From NCBI GenBank assembly GCA_025363695.1, contig JANYDI010000058.1, positions 1 to 43,091 on the forward strand: a DNA stretch of 43,091 nt, in the 5' to 3' direction. Shown piece after piece: positions 3,896-43,091 of this stretch (positions are counted from its first letter, which is position 1; the number at the start of each line of letters is the position of its first letter). The notes beneath the pieces are model-generated. The model did not search any database and was not told the DNA's origin. It was given only the letters and a program-made list of their open reading frames with translations. The translations under genes and the position numbers were made by a program. The stretch is from Opitutia bacterium (GTDB lineage Bacteria > Verrucomicrobiota > Verrucomicrobiia > Opitutales > JANYDI01).

Positions 3896-4594
3896 ATGCC
3901 CGAACCCGAAGAAATAAAAACCTTGTTCCAGCGTATTGCCTGGCGTTATGACCGAGCTAACACGGTCCTAAGCCTAGGACTGCACCGTTACTGGCGTTGG
4001 CGAACAGCACGGGTGGTCAAGGCCCTCAAGCCCAAGGTCGTGCTGGATATGGCCACTGGGACGGGTGATTTAGCCTTTGCCCTTGAGCGACAACTCGGGA
4101 AAACCACAAGCATTATGGGTATGGACTTTTGCGAACCCATGTTGGCCTTGGCGCGTAAAAAACAAGGGAATTCCCCTATTCCGTTTACCCTAGGCGATTG
4201 CCTAAATATTCCCCTAGATGACGGCAGTATCGACGTGGTAACTATGGCCTTTGGCTTACGGAATATTCCCCAGCGCAATAAAGCGTTTTTGGAAATCCAC
4301 CGCGTATTACGTCCTGGAGGGTTTTTGGTCCTCCTGGAGTTCAGCCAACCCAGCCGCTGGTTTGCGCCGCTGTATTGGCCGTATTTACACGCTATTTTAC
4401 CCTGGCTCTCAGGCCTCCTTACGGGCCACCAGGAAGCATATCGCTATTTGGGCCGCAGTATTGAGGGCTTTTTAAGCAAAAAAGCCCTCAGTGATGAGCT
4501 GCGTAAGCACGGCTTTGAGCCAGTAAAGGCTGTTGGGCTGTCGGCCTCCGTTGTGGCTATTCATGTAGGAAAGAAAAGGGCCAAGGGGAGCTAG
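3896..4594 (+). CDS. ubiE: Demethylmenaquinone/ubiquinone C-methyltransferase (UbiE/MenG family)
   Basis: ATG at 3896 (MPEPEEIKTLFQRIAWRYDRAN) aligns with UbiE N-termini; the track ORF start at 3839 overlaps the upstream gene. SAM-binding motif VLDMATGTGD is present, and LRPGG and LEFS motifs match the family. The stop codon lies in the loop of a repeat hairpin. Confidence 0.85.
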   Translation: MPEPEEIKTLFQRIAWRYDRANTVLSLGLHRYWRWRTARVVKALKPKVVLDMATGTGDLAFALERQLGKTTSIMGMDFCEPMLALARKKQGNSPIPFTLGDCLNIPLDDGSIDVVTMAFGLRNIPQRNKAFLEIHRVLRPGGFLVLLEFSQPSRWFAPLYWPYLHAILPWLSGLLTGHQEAYRYLGRSIEGFLSKKALSDELRKHGFEPVKAVGLSASVVAIHVGKKRAKGS

Positions 4595-4879
4595 CTCCCC
4601 TTGTATCCCCTATCGGTAGCGATTTATTAAAATGCTAGCGCATTTTAAATAAATCGCTACCGGATGGCGATACAAGGCCCCCCACAGATCGCGAAGCGAT
4701 CCGGGTGTATTTTATGAATTGCTTTGAAAGCTTGGTTTTAACGGAGGCATTTTGACGTTTAGACAAGGAAGGGAAGTGCGTAGCGCACTTTAGGTGCGTG
4801 AGTCACTTCCCTGACGCCGTATAAACTCAAAAGGCCCCGCTAAAACCAAGCTTTAGGGGCGCGAGCGCCCCCTTAGCCC
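4575..4879 (+). repeat. Composite: type-1 half + type-2 hairpin element + inverted terminal H1
   Basis: H1 4582-4603, H2 4612-4665, H3 4687-4701, type-2 hairpin 4727-4854, terminal H1 4855-4873. Same architecture as 33220-33521. Confidence 0.9.
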
Positions 4880-7392: not shown

Positions 7393-7468
7393 TGGTGCCC
7401 CCACTGAGATTCGAACTCAGATTAACGGTTTAGGAAACCGCGGTTCTATCCTATTGAACTATGGGGAC
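7393..7468 (-). tRNA. tRNA-Arg (anticodon CCT), CCA encoded
   Basis: The reverse complement folds by hand into a cloverleaf. Acceptor GTCCCCA/TGGGGGC, D arm GTTC/GAAC, anticodon stem GCGGT/ACCGT with loop TTCCTAA (CCT), T arm CTGAG-TTCGAAT-CTCAG, and 3' ACCA. Confidence 0.9.
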
Positions 7469-7607: not shown

Positions 7608-8699
7608 ATGAATAAACGCGTCACGATCAAAGACCTGGCCCAGGAAGTTGGATTAAGCCTTGGAGCCGTTTCTCAGGCCCTTAACCCTCGAGAAAGCACC
7701 ATTAAAGTACGCGAAGAAACAATACAGCGTGTCCAAGCTGCCGCCCGGAGAATGGGCTATAGGCCTCACGCAGGGGCTAGCTCGATTCGTTCCAAGCATT
7801 TCCAAAACATTGGGTACTTCATGGCCAGTACAGGCATTCCGGACTATGAACCTGTAGGCTATTCCATAGGACTCCATGATGCTGCGCTGGAACACAATTT
7901 TCGCGTCACCTTGATCCGCTTGCCTTCGGGCAAGTTCAAAAACGCCATCTCGCGCGTCTTCAGAGAAGCCCATCTAGACGCCATGGTCATGGTGAATGCC
8001 TCCATCCTTTTTTCGGAATACAAGGACATTCTCCAAACTTCAGATTTTCCAGTCATTTATTTAAACGATAAACAGGATAATAACTCTGTCTACACCGATG
8101 ATATTTTGGGTGCCAAGCGTGCCACAGAACACTTGATCCAGCGCGGTCATCGCAGTATTTATTTTGTCAAAATCAATAATGCTCCTGTAGTAGACCTACA
8201 TTACAGCATTGCCGATCGCATCCAGGGCTACACAGAAGCCATGCATACCGCAAAGCTCAAACCCGTCATCAAAGCCTACACCTACCCGCAACAAGAAGGC
8301 CCCTTGCTTGATGAGCTTTTTGGTCGCGATAAGCCTGAGGCCATTTTAGCTTATTGCGATGCGGATGCCGCCCAGCTCCTAAAGTTTGCTTATCACCAAG
8401 GCCTTCATGCCCCTGAAGACATCGCCATTATGGGCTATAACGACGATATCTTTTCACGCCACTGCTGGGTCACCCTGTCAACCATGCACATCCCCACCTA
8501 CGATATGGCCCAGGCTGCCTTCCGCATGGTTTTAGCTCAAATTGATGAAAATAGCAACGGCCCTACCGACTCCTGCGTCTTTGTCCCAGAACTCATCGTC
8601 CGCGCTTCTACGGAAAGGGAAAAGGAAACGGAAAAGGAGAAGGAAAGGGCCAAGGGGAGCGAGCTCCCCTTGGATCCCCTACAGGTAGCGATTTTGTGA
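7608..8699 (+). CDS. LacI/GalR family transcriptional regulator
   Basis: N-terminal HTH (VTIKDLAQEVGLSLGAVSQALN) plus a periplasmic-binding-protein-like sugar-binding core. The last ~30 aa (EREKETEKEKERAKGSELPLDPLQVAIL) are translated from a purine-rich tract and a type-1 repeat. Confidence 0.85.
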   Translation: MNKRVTIKDLAQEVGLSLGAVSQALNPRESTIKVREETIQRVQAAARRMGYRPHAGASSIRSKHFQNIGYFMASTGIPDYEPVGYSIGLHDAALEHNFRVTLIRLPSGKFKNAISRVFREAHLDAMVMVNASILFSEYKDILQTSDFPVIYLNDKQDNNSVYTDDILGAKRATEHLIQRGHRSIYFVKINNAPVVDLHYSIADRIQGYTEAMHTAKLKPVIKAYTYPQQEGPLLDELFGRDKPEAILAYCDADAAQLLKFAYHQGLHAPEDIAIMGYNDDIFSRHCWVTLSTMHIPTYDMAQAAFRMVLAQIDENSNGPTDSCVFVPELIVRASTEREKETEKEKERAKGSELPLDPLQVAIL

Positions 8700-8771
8700 A
8701 ATACTGCGTATTTCAACAAAATCGCTACCTGGGTAGGCATACAAGGCCACCCTCCGGATCGCGAAGCGATC
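8644..8771 (+). repeat. Type-1 element, half copy (overlaps the lacI-family 3' end)
   Basis: H1 8652-8671, H2 8682-8731, H3 8757-8771. Preceded by a GGAAA-rich tract at 8612-8643. Confidence 0.9.
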
Positions 8772-8803
8772 GAACTTAGAAAATTTAAGCATTTATCAAG
8801 CTG

Positions 8804-9019
8804 CACATAAGGAGGCCTGAAGGGCCGGCAGATCGTAGCCCAGGGCGTAAGCCCTGGGTCCGGGATGGAAAATAAACCGGAGCCCTGTAAGGGCGGCACT
8901 AAAAATTTGAATAGGAGTGTCGCCCCTGTAGGGCTCAAAATCTTTTTTTACCGTAAACCCAGGGCTTACGCCCTGGGCTGTCATCTGCCGGCCCTTCAGG
9001 CCTCCTTAAGTGTGGTTTG
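8804..9019. mobile_element. Foldback MITE core, CACATAAGGAGGCC-arm subtype
   Basis: ~58-bp arms (CACATAAGGAGGCCTGAAGGGCCGGCAGAT.GTAGCCCAGGGCGTAAGCCCTGGG and its complement) around an inner hairpin GAGCCCTGTAAGGGCGGCAC...GTGTCGCCCCTGTAGGGCTC. Confidence 0.85.
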
Positions 9020-13116: not shown

Positions 13117-13131
13117 AGGGAAAGTAAAGGG

Positions 13132-13260
13132 AAGGGCTAAGGGGCGCTTGCGCCCCTTAGGATCCCCTACCGATAGGCGATTTTCAAAAATGCTAGCGCA
13201 TTTTATAAAAATCGCCTATCGGGAAGGTATACTAAGCCCCCTCCGGATCGCTTCGCGATC
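13132..13260 (+). repeat. Type-1 element, half copy
   Basis: H1 13139-13158, H2 13170-13222, H3 13246-13260. Preceded by GAAGGGAAAGTAAAGGGAAGGG. Confidence 0.9.
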
Positions 13261-13264
13261 GTCA

Positions 13265-13561
13265 AAACAAAATATGGTTATGTATTTATTCAAACCACAC
13301 ATAAGGAGGCCTGAAGGGCCGGCAGATACGTAGCCCAGGGCGTAAGCCCTGGGTTTATGGGTGAAAAAGATTTTGAGCCCTACAGGGGCGACACTCACAC
13401 TTTCTGAAATTTTCTTGAGTGCCGCCCTTACAGGGCTCTGGTCTATTTTCCATGCCAAACCCAGGGCTTACGCCCTGGGCTACGATCTGCCGGCCCTTCA
13501 GGCCTCCCATAGTGTGATTTGAATGAATGACTTAAGCTTAAACTAAAATGAGGACACGCCC
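13265..13561. mobile_element. Foldback MITE, CACATAAGGAGGCC-arm subtype (left TIR missing)
   Basis: Foldback core 13282-13521. Right linker and TIR ...GAGGACACGCCC end at 13561, followed by TA 13562-13563. Confidence 0.85.
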
Positions 13562-13563
13562 TA

Positions 13564-13767
13564 TTTAATCAAACCACACTTTGCCCCGTGGCCGCCGTAG
13601 CCACTTGGCGAAGGCTGGCTGGGTTTACGGGTAAAAAACAAACCAGAGCCCTACAGGGGCGATTCATTAAAATGTATCAAATTTATCTAGAAATTAAAAA
13701 TATGCCTTATATCAGCTTTAGAGAATCGCCCCTGTAGAGCTCTAGGCTCTGTGAAGGAAAATTTTTG
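13564..13767. mobile_element. Foldback MITE variant: GCCGCCG mini-hairpin module + AT-rich-core inverted repeat; right arm missing
   Basis: Mini-hairpin module ~13578-13612. Core inverted repeat GAGCCCTACAGGGGCGATTC ... GAGAATCGCCCCTGTAGAGCTC at 13646-13742. Confidence 0.75.
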
Positions 13768-13769
13768 TA

Positions 13770-14060
13770 ATGTGAACAATTAAGCTATCCAACAAACCAC
13801 ACATAAGGAGGCCTGAAAGGCCGGCAGATATGTAGCCCAGGGCGTAAGCCCTGGGTCTGTAGGTTAAAAAAGATTTAGAGCCCTACAGGGGCGACACTCA
13901 CACTTTCTGAAATTTTCTTAAGTGCCGCCCTTGCAGGGCTCAGGTTTATTTTCCAACCAAAACCCAGGGCTTACGCCCTGGGCTACATATCTGCCAGCCT
14001 TTCAGGCCTCCTTAAGTGCGTTTTAAATAAATAGTTATATTATTATTTGATCACAGCGCC
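13770..14060. mobile_element. Foldback MITE, CACATAAGGAGGCC-arm subtype, near full length; TA on both flanks
   Basis: TA 13768-13769, partial left TIR ATGTGAACAATTAA, foldback core ~13795-14018, right TIR TTATTTGATCACAGCGCC ending at 14060, TA 14061-14062. Confidence 0.85.
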
Positions 14061-14097
14061 TAATTTTTTATTTTTTTTAAAAAACTCAAAGAAAAAC

Positions 14098-14126
14098 TTG
14101 ACGCGCCCTATAGCTTTCTGTAAAAT
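14098..14126 (+). promoter_or_regulatory. Putative sigma70-type promoter of rplY-pth-rpsF-ssb-rplI
   Basis: TTGACG (14098-14103), 17-nt spacer, TAAAAT (14121-14126). It sits just downstream of an A/T-tract and a MITE end, ~120 nt upstream of the rplY ATG. Confidence 0.55.
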
Positions 14127-14245
14127 GTATAGACGAGGACGAGTTGCGGCCAGCCACAAAAACCTCCTCCCCCTTTTTGCCCCAAAGATTTTTGTTGCAT
14201 TTTGCCTAACGGGCATTATTGTCCGCCAAGAGAAGTAATTTTGAA

Positions 14246-16847: not shown

Positions 16848-16862
16848 AAGTGTTAATGCTAA

Positions 16863-17137
16863 GGCCAAGGGGAACTCGTTCCCCTTGGGATCCCCTTTCC
16901 GATAGGCGATTTTTAAAAATGCTGGTGCATTTTATAAAAATCGCCTATCGGGAAGGATATACTAAGGCCCCCACAGATCGCTTCGCGATCCGGGTGTACG
17001 CTTATCTCGATCCCGAAGGGATCTGTGGGGTGCCTTGTATCACCCTCCCCGATAGCGATTTACTTAAAATGCGCTAGCATTTTAATAAATCGCTATCGGA
17101 AAGGGGATCCAAGGGGACAGCGTCCCCTTGGCCCTTT
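16863..17137. repeat. Type-1 element, head-to-head double
   Basis: H1 16867-16886, H3 16976-16990, H3' 17009-17023, H1' 17111-17129, with an H2 hairpin in each half. Confidence 0.9.
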
Positions 17138-17160
17138 ACTTTCTCTCAACCTTCAATCCT

Positions 17161-21166: not shown

Positions 21167-21412
21167 GGGCAAGGGGCTAAGGGGCACTCGTGCCCCTTAG
21201 GATCCCCTTCCGATGGGCAATTTTTAAAATACTACGTATTTATAAAAATTGCCCATCGGGTAGGGCATGCTAAGGTCTTCGCCGATCGCAAAGCGATCTG
21301 TGGGGCGCCTTGTATCACCTTTTTCGGTAGCGATTTATCTAAAATGCGTCAGCATTTTAATAAATCGTTACCGATAGGGGATCCAAGGGGTGCGAGCACC
21401 CCTTGGCCCTTT
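21165..21412. repeat. Type-1 element, head-to-head double with a single central H3
   Basis: The tip is duplicated (AAGGGCAAGGGGCTAAGGGG). H1 21179-21198, H3 21284-21298 (AAA loop), H1' 21385-21404. Confidence 0.9.
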
Positions 21413-24297: not shown

Positions 24298-25965
24298 ATG
24301 TTACGTGCGATGGAGTTGAAGCATTTTGGGCCTATCGAGGCGCTGAGCTTGGACCTGGAGCCCGGGTTTATCGCGGTCACGGGGGAGACAGGGGCGGGCA
24401 AAAGTGTACTCTTGGGGGCCTTACGTTTTTTGAGCGCGGATCGTGGTGGGCGCGTCGATAAGGCCTTGGTGTCTTCGCAAGCGCATCCGGCTTGGGCGCA
24501 GGCGGTCCTACAGCCCAATGCGGCAATGCTGGCCTTTTTGGAGGAGCAGGCTTTGCCTCTGGAGCCCGAGGGCTTGTGCGTGGCCCGCTCCTTATCGGCA
24601 AAGGGCGTATCCAAAGCTTATATCAATGGCCAGCCGGTGCCCATGACGCTCTTGCAGCAATTAGGAGCTTTATGGATAGATTTTCATGACCCCAGCGCGC
24701 CCATGCGTTGCTTGGACCCCAAGGAACAGCAGGGCTTACTGGATACCTTTGCGGGGATATCGGCTGCTGCCTATCAAGACGCTTATGCGGCCTTTTGTGC
24801 TACGCGTGCGCAGTACCAAACGCTCGTCCAAACCGTGCGCCTGGATGCAGAAGCCCTTAAACGCCTCAAGAAAACTCTCCAGTTGATGACCGGAATAGAC
24901 CTGAGTGACGCGGGCGTGGCCCATCTTGAGCAGCAGGCTGTTGGGCTGCAGCAGGCGCGGGTACGGCAGCAGGTTGCCTCGGAGCTCTACTACGTGTTGC
25001 AATCACAGGCCCTTGAGGCGTGCCGCAAGCAGGCCCTTGACTTGCGGGATGCTGGTAAGGACCCCCAAGTTCAGCCCCTTATGCAGCGTTTGGAGTCCTT
25101 GATGCTCGAGGTGGATGACTTTTCGCAGCAGGCTTATGCGCTCAGCAGGGCCTCAGAATGCCTCGAGGCGCCTTTTATCGAGGAACAACTGGAGCGCTGG
25201 TTTGCGCTCAAACACGCTCATGGAGGCACGGCTCAAGCGGTGCGCGAGAAAAAGGAAGCCCTGGAGCGCAGCATGGCCCTGCAGGATTCCTTAGACGGCA
25301 AGCTCCTGGAGCTGGAGTACCTTTTGCGCACGCAGGAAGCCGCAGCTCGGCACTTGGCCCAGGCGCTCTACGAGCAACGGCAGCAGGCTGCTGGGCGCTT
25401 TGAAAGCGCTATTGCCAAAAAATTGGCCGTTTTAGGACTCAATCAGGCCTACCTGCACGTGCATGTCATGCTTTCACAGGCCTTGATGCCCACAGGCCAA
25501 GACGCGGTGAGCTTCCATTTTGCGCCCAACCCTGGCCATCCAGCGCAGCCTTTGGAAAAAATCGCCTCCAGTGGCGAAAGTGCGCGTGTTTACTTGGCGC
25601 TTATCAGTGCTTTAACGTTAAAGGATGGCATTCCTGTCCTTGTTTTTGACGAAATTGACGCCCACGTAGGCGGCGAGGTCGCCCGTTGCGTCGGCCAAGA
25701 GCTAGCCCTCCTAGGCCAAGGCCGTCAGGTGTTTTGCATTACGCATTTACCCCAGGTAGCCGCTCAAGCCACGCAGCACTACTGCGTTACCAAGACTTAC
25801 GCTCAGGCAGCGACTCACATCCAGGTACTCGCCCTGCCACCCCATTCCCAAGAACGAAAAACCGAGCTAGCTCGCATGATCGGCGACCGCCACGGCCCCT
25901 CGGCGCTGCAACATGCGGGAGTGTTATTGGAAAGTAAAGGGCTAAGGGGCGCTTGCGCCCCTTAG
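24298..25965 (+). CDS. recN: DNA repair protein RecN
   Basis: ATG at 24298 (MLRAMELKHFGPIE), Walker A GETGAGKS, a long coiled-coil middle, and a C-terminal ASSGE..VLVFDEIDAHVGG signature/Walker B. The last ~10 aa (KGLRGACAP) are encoded by a repeat. Confidence 0.9.
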   Translation: MLRAMELKHFGPIEALSLDLEPGFIAVTGETGAGKSVLLGALRFLSADRGGRVDKALVSSQAHPAWAQAVLQPNAAMLAFLEEQALPLEPEGLCVARSLSAKGVSKAYINGQPVPMTLLQQLGALWIDFHDPSAPMRCLDPKEQQGLLDTFAGISAAAYQDAYAAFCATRAQYQTLVQTVRLDAEALKRLKKTLQLMTGIDLSDAGVAHLEQQAVGLQQARVRQQVASELYYVLQSQALEACRKQALDLRDAGKDPQVQPLMQRLESLMLEVDDFSQQAYALSRASECLEAPFIEEQLERWFALKHAHGGTAQAVREKKEALERSMALQDSLDGKLLELEYLLRTQEAAARHLAQALYEQRQQAAGRFESAIAKKLAVLGLNQAYLHVHVMLSQALMPTGQDAVSFHFAPNPGHPAQPLEKIASSGESARVYLALISALTLKDGIPVLVFDEIDAHVGGEVARCVGQELALLGQGRQVFCITHLPQVAAQATQHYCVTKTYAQAATHIQVLALPPHSQERKTELARMIGDRHGPSALQHAGVLLESKGLRGACAP

Positions 25966-26063
25966 AATCCCCTACAGGGTGCGATTTATTAAAATACTAC
26001 GTATTTATAATAAATCGCACCCTGGTAGGCTATGCTAAGGCCCATCCAGATCGCTTCGCGATC
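25936..26063 (+). repeat. Type-1 element, half copy (overlaps the recN 3' end)
   Basis: H1 25944-25963, H2 25975-26024, H3 26049-26063. Confidence 0.9.
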
Positions 26064-26136
26064 GAACCCTTTCCTTCCGAACTTCCTCAGCCCGGGGGTA
26101 GGGGTTCGGACCCTTTCCCTCTCGAACTTGCCCGCA

Positions 26137-30127: not shown

Positions 30128-30388
30128 CGGGTTATTTTGGGTTGATGCTGCGTCGCTGCAGCCCTCGAGTGCAGAAGCACACGTCGGGCTTAGCTCCTTG
30201 CCTGAACCCAAAATTCCTCCGCTAAACCCCAACCTTCCAAGGCAATTCAAAAAACATTCGATCGCGATACAATCTGTGGGGTGCCTTGTATACCTACTCC
30301 CGATAGCGATTTATCTAAAATGCGTTAGCATTTTAATAAATCGCTATCGGAAAGGGGATCCAAGGGGAGCAAGCTCCCCTTGGCCCTT
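30114..30388 (-). repeat. Composite: type-2 hairpin element (alternative core) + type-1 half
   Basis: Type-2 variant 30114-30236, degenerate H3 ~30259-30274, H2 30300-30350, H1 30362-30381. Confidence 0.85.
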
Positions 30389-31303
30389 CCTTCCTTCCTT
30401 AACGTCTTCGTCGAACAAAAAGAACAACGGTTCGCCGTAGTGGCGATTGGGAGTGGCCATGGCGTGGAAGACGCAGCGGACGACCTCGAAGCGTGGGAGG
30501 AGTTGGGCCTTGCTTTCGGGGCGGATGTAGTAGCGGTTGAGTTGATCGTCGAATACAAAGAGGTAGCCAGCATCGGTGAGCAGGGGTTCCCAGGAGCTGT
30601 GGCTTTTTTCGTGGGTATTGAGTTCGCGGGCTTCTACGAGGATGACGCAGGGGCGATGTTTCTTGAAGTCCAGGCCTTCGAGCACTTCACGTTCAGCGCC
30701 TTCGACGTCGATTTTCAGAAAAGCGATTTCTTGTCCCGGAATATGGGTTTCGATGAGGGTGCTTAGGGGGCATAGGTCTACCGTGATGGCCCGGCTTTTG
30801 ATACCTAAGTTGTTGGTTAGCAAGCCATTACGCTCAGGGCTCAGGGTGGAGGCTTCCTTGGAGTCCGACTGATATAATATGCTAACTCCTGTCTTATTAC
30901 TGGCTGCGAGCTGAAGGTTGATGTCCTCAGGCCGATGATCCTGAAACTGCTGCCATAGCTCTGGGATGGGCTCAATGTTCATCCCGCGCCATCCGCGTTT
31001 ATAGAAAAACTGCGTCACCGAGAGGGTACTGGGGTGGTAAGCCCCCACGTCTACGTAGCAGCAGCGGTCATAAAGTTTATCAGCAAAAACAATGGCCAGG
31101 GCCATGTCTTCTCCTACCTGGGAGAAAAATATGCCTCCCGAGTTAAACATAAAGGAGCGCGCCCATAAGACGGTGGGGCTTGCTTTTTCCAGCCTTTTTT
31201 TGTTAAAAAAGCCCATCAAAGCTTCTGCGCTCAAAAGGCAAAGAACGGTGATTATGGCTCCTAAAAAAGGCAACCAAATTCGAGGAGATTTTAATAATTT
31301 CAT
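30344..31303 (-). CDS. FkbM-family SAM-dependent methyltransferase with N-terminal TM anchor
   Basis: Motifs VDVGAYHP...GWRGMNIEP...FLKIDVEGAEREVLEGL are typical of FkbM methyltransferases. The C-terminal GRKGQGELAPLGSPFR is repeat-encoded. Confidence 0.8.
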   Translation of the reverse strand: MKLLKSPRIWLPFLGAIITVLCLLSAEALMGFFNKKRLEKASPTVLWARSFMFNSGGIFFSQVGEDMALAIVFADKLYDRCCYVDVGAYHPSTLSVTQFFYKRGWRGMNIEPIPELWQQFQDHRPEDINLQLAASNKTGVSILYQSDSKEASTLSPERNGLLTNNLGIKSRAITVDLCPLSTLIETHIPGQEIAFLKIDVEGAEREVLEGLDFKKHRPCVILVEARELNTHEKSHSSWEPLLTDAGYLFVFDDQLNRYYIRPESKAQLLPRFEVVRCVFHAMATPNRHYGEPLFFLFDEDVKEGRKGQGELAPLGSPFR

Positions 31304-32430: not shown

Positions 32431-33273
32431 ATGGAAAACCCCTACTGGGTGCACCATCTGGATCCTGTCGCTTTGGCTATAGGGTCCACCGGTTTGGCCA
32501 TTCGCTGGTATGGGCTGGCCTATTTTGTAGGCCTACTCAGTGCCGCGGCGCTCCTATCGCTTTACTACAAAAAGCAGCGCTCACCCCTAAATCCTGAACT
32601 TCAGGCGACTTACCTGACCACGGGCTTATTCGGAGTGCTCATCGGCGGACGCCTCGGCAGTGTCCTTTTTTATGGCCTGCCTCCTTTGGAGGCCCTCCAA
32701 ATCTGGAAGCCTGGCATGGCCAGCCATGGCGGTTTTGTGGGTGTCGCTTTGGGAACGCTTTATTTTTGCTGGAAATACAAGCAACCCTTTCTGAGCACGA
32801 GTGACATCATCTGCACACTTCCCAATGTCGGGTTTTTCCTGGGTCGCATCGCAAACTTCATCAACGGAGAACTCTGGGGCAAAGTAACGACGCTACGCTG
32901 GGCCGTGATCTTCCCTCATAGCCCTCTGCCACTTCAGCCCCGGCACCCCTCGCAGCTCTACGAAGCTGCCCTCGAAGGGCTGTTTATGCTCATTTATACC
33001 CAAATACGCTTTTGGCGCAGCAACGTCTGCAACCGCTATCCCGGGCAGCTCTCCGGAGAATTCCTCTGCCTCTATGCCCTCGCACGCATCCTGTGCGACT
33101 GCTTCCGCGAGCCCGACTCCGCAAGCATCCTTCACCTGCCCAGGGGTACCTTTTTGTCGCTTATTTTGCTGGGATTCGGGGTGGGCGTAGTGGTGGTAAG
33201 TAGGGGTAGGGCTAAGTTTAAGGCCAAGGGGCGCTTGCGCCCCTTAGGATCCCCTACGGGTAGCGATTTTTAA
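32431..33273 (+). CDS. lgt: Prolipoprotein diacylglyceryl transferase
   Basis: IRWYGLAYFVG, GGRLG, GMASHGG, GRIANFINGELWG and HPSQLYEA motifs. The last ~26 aa (..SRGRAKFKAKGRLRPLGSPTGSDF) are translated from a purine-rich tract plus a type-1 repeat. Confidence 0.9.
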   Translation: MENPYWVHHLDPVALAIGSTGLAIRWYGLAYFVGLLSAAALLSLYYKKQRSPLNPELQATYLTTGLFGVLIGGRLGSVLFYGLPPLEALQIWKPGMASHGGFVGVALGTLYFCWKYKQPFLSTSDIICTLPNVGFFLGRIANFINGELWGKVTTLRWAVIFPHSPLPLQPRHPSQLYEAALEGLFMLIYTQIRFWRSNVCNRYPGQLSGEFLCLYALARILCDCFREPDSASILHLPRGTFLSLILLGFGVGVVVVSRGRAKFKAKGRLRPLGSPTGSDF

Positions 33274-33521
33274 AAATGCAAAGCATTTTGTAAAAATCGC
33301 TACCCGGTAGCATATACTAAGGCCCCCACAGATCGCGAAGCGATCCGAGTGTATCTTATGAATTGCTTCGAGCCGGTTTTAGGGGAGGCATTGGGGGTTC
33401 AGGCAAGGAAGGGAAGTGCGTAGCGCACTTAAGGTGCGTGAGTCACTTCCATTCCGCAGCATCAACCCCCAATGTGCCCCTAAAACCATCCTAAGGGGAG
33501 CGAGTGCCCCCTTAGCCCTTT
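33220..33521 (+). repeat. Composite: type-1 half + type-2 hairpin element + inverted terminal H1
   Basis: H1 33225-33244, H2 33257-33306, H3 33331-33345, type-2 33375-33487, H1' 33493-33513. Confidence 0.9.
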
Positions 33522-34247: not shown

Positions 34248-34505
34248 AAAGGGCTAAGGGGCACTTGTGCCCCTTAGGATCCCCTCCGATGGGCAATTTT
34301 TAAAATACTACGTATTTATAAAAATTGCCCATCGGGGAGGGTGATACTAAGGTCTCCCTCGATCGCGAAGCGATCCGGGGGGGTCCTTGTATAGGCTTCC
34401 CGATAGCGATTTATCTAAAATGCGCTAGCATTGGGATGCTAAAGCATTTTAATAAATCGCTATCGGAAAGGGGATCCAAGGGGAGCTTGCTCCCCTTGGC
34501 CCTTT
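34248..34505. repeat. Type-1 element, head-to-head double with a single central H3
   Basis: H1 34256-34275, H3 34361-34375, H1' 34478-34497. The right H2 carries a ~16-nt internal stutter (GCTAGCATTGGGATGCTAAAGCATT). Confidence 0.9.
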
Positions 34506-37238: not shown

Positions 37239-37295
37239 GCGACAAAGACCCTATAAGGCTTTTGCGATGGAGCTCAATCTAAAAAATAGAGTTTA

Positions 37296-37429
37296 AAAGG
37301 GCCAAGGGGCGCTTGCGCCCCTTGGATCCCCTACCGATAGGCAATTTTACAAAATGCTAGCGCATTTTGGTAAAATTGCCTATCGGGAAGGGCGATACAA
37401 GACCCATCCTCTCGATCCCTACGGGATCG
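37296..37429 (+). repeat. Type-1 element, half copy
   Basis: H1 37304-37323, H2 37334-37386, H3 variant CGATCCCTACGGGATCG 37413-37429. Confidence 0.9.
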
Positions 37430-37470
37430 ATTTTTTCATTTAATTTACCTTGAAAAACCCCATTAATCTA

Positions 37471-37828
37471 GGGCGTGTGATCAATTAAATTTAAAACCTG
37501 TTTTAATAGATCCATTAGTATTGATAAACGATTATTTAAAAACAAACCACAAAATGAGAGCCCTGTAGGGGCGAATGCTTGTTAGCCCAGGGCTTTAGCC
37601 CTGGGTTTACGGTGAAAAATAAACCAGAGCCCTACAGGGGCGATTCATTAAAATATATCAAAATCTTGTTAAGTATGTTCTGTATATCAGATTATGAGAA
37701 TCGCCCTTACAGGGCTCTAAATCTTTTTTCTATGCCTAACCCAGGGCTAAAGCCCTGGGCTGACAAGCATTCGCCCCTTCAGGGCTCTCATTTTGTGGTT
37801 TTAAGCTTAGTTAATTGATCACACGCCC
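37471..37828. mobile_element. Full-length nested foldback MITE, ACAAAATGAGAGCCC-arm subtype; TA on both flanks
   Basis: TA 37469-37470, TIR GGGCGTGTGATCAATTAA 37471-37488, arms AAACCACAAAATGAGAGCCCTG.AGGGGCGAATGCTTGT.AGCCCAGGGCT..AGCCCTGGG, core inverted repeat 37627-37717, TIR TTAATTGATCACACGCCC 37811-37828, TA 37829-37830. Confidence 0.9.
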
Positions 37829-37830
37829 TA

Positions 37831-38121
37831 AATTGTTTATTCAAAACACACATAAGGAGGCCTGAAAGGCCGGCAGATACGTAGCCCAGGGCGTGAGCCC
37901 TGGGTCCGGGATCAAAAATAAACCAGAGCCCTGTAAGGGCGGCACACAAGAAAATTCCAGAAAATAGGAGTGTCGCCCCTGTAGGGCTCAAAATCTTTTT
38001 TCTACTGGAACCCAGGGCTCACGCCCTGGGCTACGTATCTGCCGGCCCTTCAGGCCTCCTTAAGTGTGTTTTTAATCAACAACTTAGGCACTCTATCAAC
38101 CCCAACCTCTCATTTACGCCC
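37831..38121. mobile_element. Foldback MITE, CACATAAGGAGGCC-arm subtype, abutting the previous MITE
   Basis: Foldback core ~37846-38070. The right end ...CTCTCATTTACGCCC finishes at 38121, followed by TA 38122-38123. The left TIR is absent, and it shares TA 37829-37830 with the neighbouring MITE. Confidence 0.8.
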
Positions 38122-38164
38122 TAAACTTTTTTTGAAAAAAATTTAATTTTTTTTAAAAAACTCC

Positions 38165-38192
38165 TTGACAATCGATATTTTTTTGGTATAAT
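38165..38192 (+). promoter_or_regulatory. Near-consensus extended -10 sigma70 promoter of an orphan transcript
   Basis: TTGACA (38165-38170), 16-nt spacer ending in TGG, TATAAT (38187-38192). An A/T-rich UP-like tract lies upstream (38124-38160). Confidence 0.65.
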
Positions 38193-38198
38193 TATGGG

Positions 38199-38611
38199 GA
38201 CAGGGACAAATCCCAGTTGGCCAGCAACAAAAAAATCATCATGAAAACTCAAAACGACCAAGCTCTTTTACTCGAAATAATGCCCGGATTCTGTACTAGG
38301 GAACTCACGACAACCCTTTCTCGCCGGCTTAAGAAGCGAATCTAGCCCGAGAACTCAGATAGTGAATACGTGTTCTCGGGCGTCCTGACCCCCTATCTTT
38401 ACACAAAGATAGGTTAGCTAAATAAAACCTTAGAGCTCCGTAAGGGCGATTCTCGACTTGATACATAATAAAATTTAATAAATAAATAAAAAAGCCTAAG
38501 CCTACAAGCATAAATCAACAAGAGAATCGCCCTTACACGCTTAAAACTTAAAAAAATCTATTGAGAATACTTCACGCTTAAAGCCCTGGATATCAAAATC
38601 CAGGGCTTTTT
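38199..38611 (+). ncRNA. Candidate orphan structured transcript (~410 nt, class unknown); could alternatively encode a 34-aa peptide (38241-38345)
   Basis: Bounded by the strong promoter and an intrinsic terminator. Hand-folded hairpins at 38203-38214, 38346-38380 and 38393-38412, and a long inverted repeat at 38440-38536. The only ORF on this strand starts at 38241 and has no Shine-Dalgarno sequence. No tmRNA, RNase P, 6S or SRP signature motifs are present. Confidence 0.4.
38580..38611 (+). terminator. Rho-independent terminator
   Basis: AAAGCCCTGGA-tatcaaaa-TCCAGGGCTTTTT: a 9-bp GC-rich stem, an 8-nt loop and a T5 run. Confidence 0.75.
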
Positions 38612-38670
38612 CATGAAAAAACGCTAAAAACCTGAAAAATATATCATAAAACCTTAAAAACATTATAACA

Positions 38671-38922
38671 AGGCGTGCTCCTAATCGATAATATAACTAT
38701 TTATTCAAAACACAAAATGAGAGCCCTGAAGGGGCGAATGCTTGTCAGCCCAGGGCTTTAGCCCTGGGTTTGGCATAGAAAAAAGATTTAGAGCCCTACA
38801 GGGGCGATTCTCACAACTTAATATATAGAATATATTTAACAAGATTTTGGTACACTTTAATGAATCGCCCCTGTAGGGCTCTCATTTTGTGTTTTTAAGT
38901 TTAGTTAATTGTTCACACGCCT
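38671..38922. mobile_element. Foldback MITE, ACAAAATGAGAGCCC-arm subtype with right-arm deletion
   Basis: Degenerate left TIR AGGCGTGCTCCTAATCGATAA, complete left arm, core inverted repeat 38791-38881 joined directly to TCATTTTGTG, right TIR TTAATTGTTCACACGCC. Confidence 0.8.
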
Positions 38923-38956
38923 TAACCCCAATCCCCCCCTTTTATTGACAGCAACC

Positions 38957-39117
38957 GATCGCGAAGCGATCTGTGCCGCCTTCGCCAAGGCTTCGGCGCG
39001 CCCATGGGAGGCCCTTGTATCACCCTTCTTGATAGGCGATTTTTATAAAATGCATCGCATTTTTAAAAATCGCCTATCAATAGGGGATCCAAGGGGAGCT
39101 GGCTCCCCTTGGCCTTC
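38957..39117 (-). repeat. Type-1 element, half copy carrying a ~32-nt nested insertion
   Basis: H3 38957-38971, inserted mini-hairpin module 38976-39007, H2 39029-39080, H1 39091-39110. Overlaps the murJ 3' end. Confidence 0.85.
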
Positions 39118-40628: not shown

Positions 40629-40871
40629 AAGGGCCAAGGGGAGCTAGCTCCCCTTGGATCCCCTTTCCGATGGGCGATTTTCTAAAATGCTGGCGCATTT
40701 TAGGAAAATCGCCCATCGGCTTAGATGGATACAAGGCGCCATCCTGATCGCTTCGCGATCGTGGGGGGGCTTAGTATATGCTTATCGATAGCGATTTATC
40801 TAAAATGCGCTAGCATTTTAATAAATCGCTATCGAAAGGGGATCCTAAGGGGCACGAGTGCCCCTTAGCCC
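40629..40871. repeat. Type-1 element, head-to-head double with a single central H3
   Basis: H1 40636-40655, H3 40746-40760, H1' 40847-40866. Lies between the murJ start and the hisS end. Confidence 0.9.
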
Positions 40872-42141
40872 TTAGCCATTCTACCACTACATCCTCCTTC
40901 ACCACTTCGCTGTGGCCGTTCCGTAAATCCTTGGCCACGAGGCCTTCGGGGCTGACGGTGAGGGCGTGGTGGGCGCCTACGTGCTGGGCTTGTTCGAGTT
41001 GCTTGTTGAGGCTGGTGGGCTTAAGGGTGCCCTGGACTTGCAGGCCATGGCGACGGAGTTGTTGGGTGAGGCGCAGGGCTTGTGGGCGTAGCGATTCCTC
41101 GGTAATGGCGATGAACACTGCCGCCTGGGGGGCTTGCGCAGGCAGACAGTTATGGGCTTGGAGGCAGTCCTGGAGCGTGACATCGCCCATGGCAAAGCCA
41201 GCGGCTGGGAGCTGGGGCCCGCCTAGTTTTTCGACCAAGGTATCATAACGGCCACCACCGGCTAAGGCGCGTCCTTGGCCACTGCGTTCAAAGGCTTCGT
41301 AGACAAAACCGGTATAATAAGCAAGTCCTCGGACAATGCCCAAATCGATCGTAATAAAGGGAAGCAGCTCCATGGCTTCCAGTTGGGCCATGAGGACCTT
41401 CCAGTCCTCCAGGCGGCTAATCAAGGGCTCATGGTGCTTGTTGGTGTTTAAAAAGGCTTCAATGGCTTGTAGGCTGCGCAGACTACTGAGGTGATCGATA
41501 GCTTGTAGGAGTTTTTCACCTTCAAGATGTAGGGCTTCTAGCTTTGCAATGACCTGCTGGGCTGCTTCCCGTTCGCGCTTGTCAATAATATTCAGGACGG
41601 CAAAAAGCTGCTCTTGCGGGACTCCCCAGCTGCTCAGCGCCTGTAGCCACAAAGTTCGGTCGCTCAGGCGGATATGGACCTGTTGCTCGGTGAGGCCAAA
41701 GTTCTGAAACGTAGTGATCATCAGGGCTATGAGCTCCGCATCGGCTCCAGGACCGGCTTCTCCCAGGATATCGGCATTGAATTGATAAAAGGCTCGCAAA
41801 CGCCCTTTTTGCGGGCGTTCGTAGCGGTAGCACTCACCCACGTTAAACCACTTGATGGGCCGCTTCAAAGCCGCTGCCTTTGCTCCCACCATCGCCGCCA
41901 AAGAGGGCGTCAGCTCTGGCCTCAACGCGATAGCCCGACCGCCTTTGTCCTGGAAACAAAAGAGCTGGTCGACGACTTCCTGGCCGGATTTTTCGATATA
42001 TAATTCGAGCGGTTCCAATGTGGGCGCCTCATAAGGCTGAAAAGCAAAGGCCTTGGCCGTTCGCCGCCACGTATCAAAAATGTTATCACGTAACGCGCAT
42101 TCCTGTGGAAAAAATTGCCGAAACCCTGGTAGTGTCCCCAT
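40810..42141 (-). CDS. hisS: Histidine--tRNA ligase
   Basis: Class II aaRS motifs (LRPELTPS, YRYERPQKGRLRAF, GGGRYD) plus a C-terminal anticodon-binding domain. The last ~20 aa (RAKGHSCPLGSPFDSDLLKC) are repeat-encoded. Confidence 0.9.
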   Translation of the reverse strand: MGTLPGFRQFFPQECALRDNIFDTWRRTAKAFAFQPYEAPTLEPLELYIEKSGQEVVDQLFCFQDKGGRAIALRPELTPSLAAMVGAKAAALKRPIKWFNVGECYRYERPQKGRLRAFYQFNADILGEAGPGADAELIALMITTFQNFGLTEQQVHIRLSDRTLWLQALSSWGVPQEQLFAVLNIIDKREREAAQQVIAKLEALHLEGEKLLQAIDHLSSLRSLQAIEAFLNTNKHHEPLISRLEDWKVLMAQLEAMELLPFITIDLGIVRGLAYYTGFVYEAFERSGQGRALAGGGRYDTLVEKLGGPQLPAAGFAMGDVTLQDCLQAHNCLPAQAPQAAVFIAITEESLRPQALRLTQQLRRHGLQVQGTLKPTSLNKQLEQAQHVGAHHALTVSPEGLVAKDLRNGHSEVVKEDVVVEWLRAKGHSCPLGSPFDSDLLKC

Positions 42142-42204: not shown

Positions 42205-42252
42205 AAAGGGAAAGGGAAAGGGAAAGGGAAAGGGAAAGGGAAAGGGAAAGGG
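42205..42252. repeat. Perfect hexanucleotide microsatellite (AAAGGG)x8 fused to the tip of a type-1 element
   Basis: Counted by hand: eight uninterrupted AAAGGG units running into H1 (42248-42267). Located ~65-110 nt upstream of the hisS start codon. Confidence 0.9.
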
Positions 42253-42370
42253 GCGCTGGCGCCCCTTAGGATCCCCTACCGATAGGCGATTTTTAAAAAT
42301 GCGATGCATTTTATAAAAATCGCCTATCGGGAAGGGTGATACTAAGGCCTCCACAGATCGCTTCGCGATC
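42248..42370 (+). repeat. Type-1 element, half copy
   Basis: H1 42248-42267, H2 42279-42330, H3 42356-42370. Confidence 0.9.
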
Positions 42371-42394
42371 GAACATTATCAATATAAGTGTTTA

Positions 42395-42454: not shown

Positions 42455-42890
42455 TACGATCATTCTGATGCTATTTTTGTATTTAAAATCACATACATAT
42501 AAGTTGTTTATCAACAACAAAGTACACTTTGATCGCCCTGAAAGGGCGAAGGATGATAGCCCAGGGCGACTCTTGGGTCGCCCTGGGTTTGCTGTGAAAA
42601 AAGACTAGAGCCCTACAGGGGCGATTCTTAAAATGTATTAAATTTATCTTAAAATTAACAAAATATTGCAATAAAATTTAAAATATATGCTCTATATCAA
42701 CTCTATTGAATCGCCCCTGTAGGGCTCTAAATCTCTACCTACCAGAACCCAGGGCGACCCAAGAGTCGCCCTGGGCTATCATCCTTCGCCCCTTCAGGGC
42801 GATCATTTTGTGTTTTGAATCAAAAAGTTAGACTGCCTTCAGCACGATAGACTTAGACGCATGTGATTTTTAAAGACAAAAATAGCATCA
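42455..42890. mobile_element. Third foldback subtype (GATCGCCCTGAAAGGGCG arm) nested inside a larger inverted repeat
   Basis: Outer inverted repeat ATTCTGATGCTATTTTTGTATTTAAAATCACAT (42462-42494) / ATGTGATTTTTAAAGACAAAAATAGCATCAGAAT (42861-42894). Inner foldback ~42515-42815 with core inverted repeat 42608-42727. Confidence 0.75.
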
Positions 42891-42896
42891 GAATTA

Positions 42897-43091
42897 GGGC
42901 GTGTGATCAATTAAGCTATCAACAAAACGCACATAAGGAGGCCTGAAGGGCCGGCATATCGTAGCCCGGGGCGTAAGCCCTGGGTTTACAGGTGAAAATT
43001 TTTTGAGCCCTACAGGGGCGACACTCGTATTCAAATTCTGAGTGCCGCCCTTACAGGGCTCCGGTTTGTTTTTCATATCAAACCCAGGGCT
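42897..43091. mobile_element. Foldback MITE, CACATAAGGAGGCC-arm subtype, truncated by the window end
   Basis: TA 42895-42896, then TIR GGGCGTGTGATCAATTAA, linker, left arm, inner hairpin, and the start of the right arm. Confidence 0.85.

Follow-up and report, generated by a model that had tools for sequence, protein, structure and literature searches.

A predicted short gene with an embedded, decayed MITE-core copy in a repeat nest of an Opitutia genome

Background

Dual-function and small-ORF (open reading frame) transcripts are exemplified by Staphylococcus aureus RNAIII, which carries hld, Escherichia coli SgrS, which carries SgrT, and Bacillus subtilis SR1, which carries SR1P. Here we analyze a locus of comparable layout, a candidate transcription unit at positions 38165 to 38611 of contig JANYDI010000058.1, from an Opitutia bacterium of the Verrucomicrobiota; the whole contig, 43,091 nucleotides (nt) long, is called the window below. 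As in RNAIII, SgrS and SR1, a short orphan transcript would be made from its own promoter up to an intrinsic terminator; its 5' part would be open and contain a small ORF, and the RNA beyond would be structured. The unit has no sequence or structural homology to these three RNAs, and its translation and any regulation by it are predictions.

The unit also contains a piece of a miniature inverted-repeat transposable element (MITE), which invites comparison with two other systems. The Coxiella burnetii small RNAs (sRNAs) Cbsr3, Cbsr13 and Cbsr16 derive from the elements QMITE1 and QMITE2 (Wachter et al. 2018, PMC5896051, cited through PMC10969869). To the extent that this secondary account describes them, the likeness lies in an sRNA-sized transcript, a predicted one in our case, that carries MITE sequence and to which no function is assigned; the difference is that the Coxiella sRNA arises from the MITE itself, whereas in our unit unique sequence makes up the promoter, the first 221 transcribed nt and the terminator, and the MITE-derived stretch looks like an internal, decayed passenger. 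In Neisseria, Correia repeat-enclosed elements are co-transcribed into mRNAs, where their hairpins become targets of RNase III, through binding or cleavage, with consequences for the fate of the transcript (PMC2649163; PMC10969869). There, as in the transcript predicted here, a small mobile element contributes its inverted repeat to an RNA, in which it forms a long hairpin, and nests of elements lie next to genes. Correia elements, however, carry outward promoters of their own, whereas the promoter of the unit is not repeat-derived; the sequences are unrelated, and the hairpin described here is known from sequence alone. The unit belongs with these known classes, that is, with orphan sRNA or small-ORF genes and with MITE-hairpin transcripts such as the Coxiella QMITE sRNAs and the Correia co-transcripts.

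Our main finding is that the unit is most likely a genuine, strongly transcribed and lineage-specific short gene, which would encode a small protein, act as a regulatory RNA, or do both. Its observed features are real and well beyond chance. We report the anatomy of the locus, the arguments for and against translation of its ORF, and the nature of the MITE piece, and we weigh the readings that compete to explain them.

Results

Anatomy of the unit

All parts of the unit lie on the plus strand (coordinates are those of the window):

38128-38164, plus strand: A/T-rich tract adjoining the -35 box, with an A/T palindrome at 38128-38160; putative UP element
38165-38192, plus strand: predicted sigma-70 promoter, TTGACA-16 nt-TATAAT with an extended -10 TGn, from the consensus scan
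38199-38240, plus strand: predicted transcription start at G38199 (7 nt past the -10 box, placed from promoter geometry) and 42-nt 5' leader with a 4-bp hairpin at 38203-38214
38241-38345, plus strand: 34-codon ORF (MKTQNDQALLLEIMPGFCTRELTTTLSRRLKKRI), candidate gene for a small basic protein, from the ORF list, start context and fold
38345-38381, plus strand: perfect 10-bp hairpin GCCCGAGAAC-N17-GTTCTCGGGC, beginning at the last base of the ORF stop codon; seen in the sequence and in all folds
38392-38413, plus strand: perfect 9-bp hairpin CCTATCTTT-ACAC-AAAGATAGG; seen in the sequence and in folds
38420-38549, plus strand: diverged relic of a MITE core, 130 nt, repeat-derived, from homology and fold
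38580-38611, plus strand: intrinsic terminator with a 12-bp stem, a 6-nt loop and a T5 run, from the sequence and folds

The promoter consists of a -35 box TTGACA (38165-38170), a 16-nt spacer with TGg at its end, and a -10 box TATAAT (38187-38192). Its sigma-70 score in the consensus scan is 12/12 plus the extended -10 TG, and it is the sole 12/12 site on either strand of the 43-kb window, the runners-up reaching 10/12; given the local base composition, we estimate the chance expectation for such sites at about 0.004-0.02. Both the sequence anatomy of the unit and the uniqueness of the promoter are direct observations. An 18-nt stretch of the upstream tract (38146-38163) recurs in identical form at 14070-14087, upstream of the promoter of the gene for ribosomal protein L25/CTC, the second-best promoter in the window. 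This recurrence supports the idea that strong promoters of this genome characteristically carry the tract.

The L25/CTC promoter (TTGACG-17-TAAAAT, window 14060-14130) stands directly 3' of a MITE, and the 18-nt tract common to both loci, TTTTTTTTAAAAAACTC, lies there about 9-10 nt, or one helical turn, farther from the -35 box. An apparent likeness between the leader of the unit and the L25 leader (GGCCAGCnACAAAAA) was rejected as not significant (E 0.8).

From the promoter-driven start to the terminator, the predicted unit measures about 413 nt. The terminator, AAAGCCCTGGAT-ATCAAA-ATCCAGGGCTTT at 38580-38609 with its T run up to 38611, appears in every fold prediction. A simple terminator scanner did not report it, most likely because the stem runs into the T run. 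When folds were compared with those of shuffled sequences, the whole unit gave a z score of -6.9. This value does not denote a globally structured RNA, because the signal stems from the MITE-core hairpin, the terminator and the two small hairpins: z is -8.2 for the MITE segment (38420-38549), -4.9 for the terminator segment (38550-38614) and -4.8 for the two hairpins past the stop codon (38340-38419, 80 nt). The leader and ORF together (38199-38345, 147 nt) score +1.5, that is, they are less structured than their shuffles, and the unique 5' part taken alone scores -1.2 to -1.4. The possibility that the terminator or the left hairpins derive from MITE arms was rejected, as no alignment was significant.

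Much of this layout had been set out in a preliminary description of the same DNA, and it stands. The consensus promoter with its A/T-rich, UP-like tract is where that description had placed it and attains the full 12/12 score; the terminator some 410 nt downstream folds in all predictions; the hairpins at 38203-38214, 38346-38380 and 38393-38412 and the inverted repeat at 38440-38536 had been given exactly; the homology of that repeat to the MITE core is confirmed by alignment; and the unit does sit between two MITEs, at 37827-38088 and 38704-38898. The description had also named 38241-38345 as the single plus-strand ORF, and it is indeed the only one of at least 25 amino acids in the unit.

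Is the ORF translated?

The ORF starts 42 nt from the predicted transcription start. The preliminary description had found no convincing ORF in the unit, as a Shine-Dalgarno sequence is missing. That argument is invalid: the bona fide genes of the window are themselves mostly devoid of a Shine-Dalgarno sequence, so that its lack says nothing against the ORF. Their upstream regions are A/C-rich and G-poor, and they often begin with ATGAAA; translation initiation in this genome appears to proceed largely without Shine-Dalgarno sequences. The 5' leader of the unit, A-rich and G-poor, resembles the upstream regions of these real genes.

We modeled the start context with a crude position weight matrix built from 20 ATG-start genes. 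ATG 38241 scores 9.1 bits, above all 1182 other ATGs of the window; with an intergenic background it scores 7.5 bits, above all 208 intergenic ATGs. By this weakly discriminating model, the start context of ATG 38241 resembles that of the real genes of this genome. The scarcity of Shine-Dalgarno sequences and the start context are both read directly from the window. Moreover, the surroundings of the ATG are unusually poor in structure, the stop codon adjoins the first stable hairpin, and single-sequence AlphaFold2 models the peptide as a helix-loop-helix, with a pLDDT (predicted local distance difference test score) of 79.7 in the best model and 64-68 in the others.

Several observations weigh against a protein product. 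The start-context model separates starts from decoys weakly, real genes scoring from -9 to +5 in leave-one-out trials, and a helix call from single-sequence AlphaFold2 is weak evidence. The codon score of the ORF, -0.7, is typical of stop-free intergenic windows and falls in the lowest 3.4% of internal gene windows, though such values also occur over the first 34 codons of real genes; its GC content is 45%, versus 53% in genes. A phmmer search with a 42-amino-acid ORF against 1.84 billion representative proteins returned 0 homologues, and neither Pfam nor NCBIfam has a family that matches the ORF. The entries of the protein collection for this region are all on the minus strand (60 and 40 amino acids); as the plus-strand ORF is absent, we take it that it was never called as a gene. 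Finally, we estimate that a 34-codon ORF in 413 nt at 40% GC is not improbable by chance.

The two minus-strand ORFs, 38332-38511 (60 amino acids) and 38544-38663 (40 amino acids), are singletons without relatives; they run across the hairpins, the MITE core and the terminator. As gene calls they are almost certainly spurious. The idea that the plus-strand peptide is an N-terminal remnant of a neighbor gene was rejected, since tblastn against the contigs of relatives found nothing.

A diverged MITE-core copy in the 3' part

A BLAST comparison of the unit with the window showed that segment 38199-38419 is unique, and local alignments with shuffling controls found significant similarity to MITEs over 38412/38420-38549 only. 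The unit is thus a mosaic in which a single repeat block is set into unique sequence. The unique parts are:

38128-38192, plus strand: promoter and upstream tract
38199-38419, plus strand: 5' transcribed part, 221 nt
38550-38611, plus strand: 3' part including the terminator

The repeat block is organized around two inverted-repeat arms of 23 nt each (38440-38462 and 38514-38536), separated by a 51-nt A/T-rich apical loop. The arms pair over 15 perfect bp, then a 3x3 internal loop, then 5 bp. Aligned with the four other ATTC-type core copies, both arms and the adjoining linker are clearly homologous, and the interior is largely unrelated to the interiors of the other copies. The block thus has the plan of the MITE family (core GAGCCCTACAGGGGCGATTC), arms around an A/T-rich interior, though in diverged form. 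Its arms carry 7/26 and 9/26 mismatches to the family consensus, versus 1-5 in the eight other arms; over the ten arms compared it is the most diverged core copy in the window, far from the position at or near the consensus expected of a master copy. This extent and divergence are observed directly. No outer arms with the CCCAGGGC...GCCCTGGG hairpin, the Acido-Lenti-1 module that occurs in inverted pairs, are present within the unit, and RF01687, the corresponding Rfam family, has no match there. A target-site duplication around the core, TAAAAC(C)TTA, was considered and dropped: the flanks are themselves homologous to the MITE linker, so that no duplication can be claimed.

As the relic is the most diverged copy and its arms pair with each other, we read it as an old, tolerated insertion; it looks like a passenger that entered the 3' part of a pre-existing unit. 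In the predicted transcript its inverted repeat would form a near-perfect duplex of the Correia type, about 20 bp or longer. By analogy, such a hairpin could serve as a stabilizing element or as an RNase III-sensitive site.

Known RNA families and other matches

The preliminary description had seen no sign of transfer-messenger RNA (tmRNA), RNase P, 6S or signal recognition particle (SRP) RNA, and systematic scans agree. Rfam 15 gave no match in 38050-38700 at the gathering score and, at E<=10, sub-threshold noise only (the best was BTnc060, 28 bits versus a threshold of 229); ARAGORN found no tmRNA, its only hit in the window being a tRNA-Arg at 7393-7468. By eye, 38226-38290 resembles a tmRNA tag region, but this candidate was rejected for want of an acceptor or T-arm, a plausible tag ending or a covariance-model match. 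The 5' GGGGACA has no visible 3' counterpart with which it could pair, and BLAST against phage and plasmid records revealed no similarity to the unit. RF01687 (Acido-Lenti-1) is the only Rfam family that matches the neighborhood, namely the outer arms of the flanking MITEs, and it does not match inside 38165-38611.

Repeat surroundings

Between murJ and oppB, a MITE nest of 1.8 kb (window 37239-39076) surrounds the unit. Intact MITEs adjoin the two ends of the unit, and the promoter, ORF and terminator are uninterrupted. The flanking elements, context outside the unit, are:

37827-38088, strand not assigned: left flanking MITE, with Acido-Lenti-1 matches at 37858-37904 (minus) and 38011-38057 (plus)
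38704-38898, strand not assigned: right flanking MITE, with an Acido-Lenti-1 match at 38722-38768 (minus)

RF01687, which Rfam types as an sRNA gene, has 14 matches above the gathering score in the window, all of them inside MITEs (8813-9003, 13307-13505, 13809-14009, 37559-37786, 37858-38057, 38722-38768, 42534-42801 and 42939-42984). They form divergent (minus, plus) pairs, 100-160 nt apart, around a GAGCCCTACAGGGGCGA core. Here, the Acido-Lenti-1 motif is a terminal-inverted-repeat module of a mobile element and makes up the outer arm of a MITE. The motif was given for Acidobacteria and Lentisphaerae only (Weinberg 2010, PMC2864571); its occurrence in a verrucomicrobial genome extends it beyond the two phyla of the family name. 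One core copy, at 13560-13760, has a different left arm (GCCCCGTGGCCGCCGTAGCCACTTGGCGAAGGCTGG...) and is without a right outer arm. The MITEs seem to be built from modules, a core being combined with arms that can be exchanged.

A second palindromic repeat of about 130 nt is far more abundant and occurs at almost every gene end, with at least 18 copies in 43 kb. It has a center GATAGGCGATTTTTATAAAATGC...GCATTTTTAAAAATCGCCTATC and flanking CCAAGGGG-N-CCCCTTGG hairpins, and was spotted through a copy at 153-290 of contig JANXME010000164.1. Example copies in the window lie at 39010-39116, 37318-37434, 13126-13261, 4569-4701, 8645-8778, 16861-17143 and 21283-21390, and further ones at 25930-26066, 30256-30389, 33214-33345, 34359-34504, 40629-40873 and 42234-42387.

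Relatives

The nearest homologues of MurJ are 57-59% identical, and those of OppB 67-68%; by the named matches of these two proteins, the organism is a verrucomicrobium close to Opitutales/Puniceicoccales. On the contigs of the four nearest relatives, murJ and oppB are not neighbors: other genes follow murJ, and a hydrolase gene with a short spacer precedes oppB. Neither the unit nor the MITEs are found on these contigs. Because the murJ-oppB adjacency is confined to this genome and the MITEs are absent from the nearest relatives, the nest marks a synteny breakpoint.

Wider scans brought no further copy of the unit. A scan of GTDB genomes with MurJ peptide patterns found no relative; exact look-ups of MurJ and OppB found nothing beyond a Logan contig of 1 kb, whose end falls at a repeat; and exact-pattern DNA scans with the 5' end and hairpin of the unit gave 0 matches in metagenome contigs of the Joint Genome Institute (JGI) and in viral contigs. 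The organism is present in sample SRR23617308, where an oppB contig is identical. Scans with a MITE-core 21-mer found two 1.5-kb repeat-only contigs in the metagenome-assembled genome (MAG) JANXME01 and one 1.9-kb JGI contig, and none among viral contigs; the unique region of the unit is absent from all three. A 22-nt match in one of the MAG contigs (JANXME010000164.1) was dismissed as chance. The two contigs, JANXME010000164.1 and JANXME010000019.1, belong to a MAG labeled 'Actinomycetes bacterium' and carry the same families of MITE and REP-like (repetitive extragenic palindromic) repeats at 77-94% identity; they are probably mis-binned and come from a relative of the organism of the window.

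Discussion

Our tentative preference, which we hold with less than even confidence, is that the unit is a lineage-specific, stand-alone short gene giving rise to a small-protein mRNA, possibly with a dual function. Transcription, translation and the roles of the hairpins are predictions throughout what follows. The UP-like tract, the -35 box and the extended -10 box would drive synthesis of an RNA of about 413 nt, from around G38199 to the terminator at 38580-38611. Its 5' third would consist of an open, A-rich leader of 42 nt followed by the 34-codon ORF, which would be translated without a Shine-Dalgarno sequence, as apparently are most genes here, into a small basic helix-loop-helix peptide. 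The remaining two-thirds would be a structured 3' untranslated region, with two perfect hairpins right past the stop codon and then the decayed copy of the MITE core, inserted between these hairpins and the terminator and by now reduced to a hairpin of about 20 bp. Most plausibly, the 3' structures would set the stability of the transcript by protecting its 3' end, possibly with an RNase III site among them, and the RNA may add a regulatory role to its coding one.

The same features can be read without a protein. In that case the unit would be a non-coding, trans-acting sRNA of about 413 nt (about 283 nt before the MITE arrived), whose unstructured, A/C-rich 5' region pairs with mRNAs while the hairpins and terminator stabilize it, and whose ORF is fortuitous. 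The predicted layout is the classic one of an orphan sRNA gene, intergenic and with its own promoter and Rho-independent terminator; the ORF has neither gene-like codon usage nor homologues, the single-stranded 5' region could act as a seed, and, as no known family is matched, such an sRNA would be new. On the other hand, an sRNA would rarely have as much as 147 nt of unstructured sequence at its 5' end, the unique 5' part has no significant fold, the ATG context is the best in the window, and the stop codon adjoins the first hairpin. Predicted pairing of the unit with the translation-start regions of 31 window genes is no better than that of shuffled RNA (-39.2 versus -40.4 +/- 3.5 kcal/mol), which is a weak test. 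We regard an sRNA as a realistic possibility, and place the small-protein or dual-function reading slightly ahead of it. The locus could also have no function at all, being the promoter, with a few codons, and the terminator left behind by a gene that the MITE nest destroyed or displaced at the synteny breakpoint, so that any transcription would be vestigial. The 1.8-kb nest between two genes that are not neighbors in the nearest relatives, the lack of homologues for any part of the unit and the MITE relic inside it would all fit. Yet a useless 12/12 promoter with its TG and UP-like tract would be expected to decay or to be selected against, and here the promoter, the ORF, both perfect hairpins and the terminator are intact while the embedded MITE copy has decayed; the flanking MITEs inserted beside the unit and not within it; and the peptide is unlike the genes that adjoin murJ or oppB in relatives. 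We consider such a remnant unlikely.

The remaining readings turn on the MITE core and on the strength of the promoter. Of what the preliminary description had proposed, an orphan, self-contained unit without a known RNA family stands, as do the sRNA and the small basic peptide as candidate products; its favorite, an expressed master copy of the MITE core whose RNA acts on the dispersed copies as an antisense or guide, is unsupported, and we hold it to be very improbable. In its favor, a MITE-core-like inverted repeat does lie inside the only strongly promoted orphan unit, its inner 15 bp are perfectly complementary despite the divergence of the arms, and the arms match those of MITE1 over 16-25 nt. 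A master copy, however, should lie near the consensus, and this is the most diverged copy; it has no outer arms, and its interior has little in common with the others. Because its arms pair with each other, in the hairpin with the lowest z score of the unit, little of them would be left free to pair with other copies. MITEs transpose at the DNA level with the help of a transposase that acts in trans; transcribing a copy therefore does nothing to multiply it, and we know of no bacterial pathway by which guides could be made from such a hairpin. Also improbable, if somewhat less so, is that a highly expressed RNA confined to this lineage has recruited the MITE-core hairpin as a functional domain, for instance as a decoy that draws RNase III, or a protein that binds MITE hairpins, away from the many MITE-bearing transcripts of this repeat-rich genome. 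The one hint of constraint is that the inner 15 bp are still perfect although the arms have drifted from the consensus and the outer arm has decayed; were the decoy real, a single strong promoter would bear on what becomes of all MITE-containing transcripts. The least credible reading is a housekeeping RNA (tmRNA, RNase P, 6S or SRP) obscured by the MITE insertion. The promoter strength is typical of stable-RNA genes, and 38226-38290 resembles, by eye, a tmRNA tag region (AAAAAAAUC...AACGAC...GCUCUU..AAUAA); against it stand the silence of Rfam on these families even at E<=10 and of ARAGORN, which by itself all but refutes the idea, the lack of a T-arm or acceptor 3' end, the unstructured 5' 147 nt, and the lack of any frame with a tmRNA-like tag ending.

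The unit is a single locus on one metagenome-assembled contig, and its main value is as a target for the mapping of metatranscriptomes. If expressed, it would join a very short list of sRNA or small-protein gene candidates reported from Verrucomicrobiota (Opitutae/Puniceicoccales-like), and would offer a clean case of a MITE fragment tolerated or recruited within a short transcript. The occurrence of Acido-Lenti-1 as a terminal arm of MITEs and the scarcity of Shine-Dalgarno sequences in this genome may be of broader use than the unit itself.

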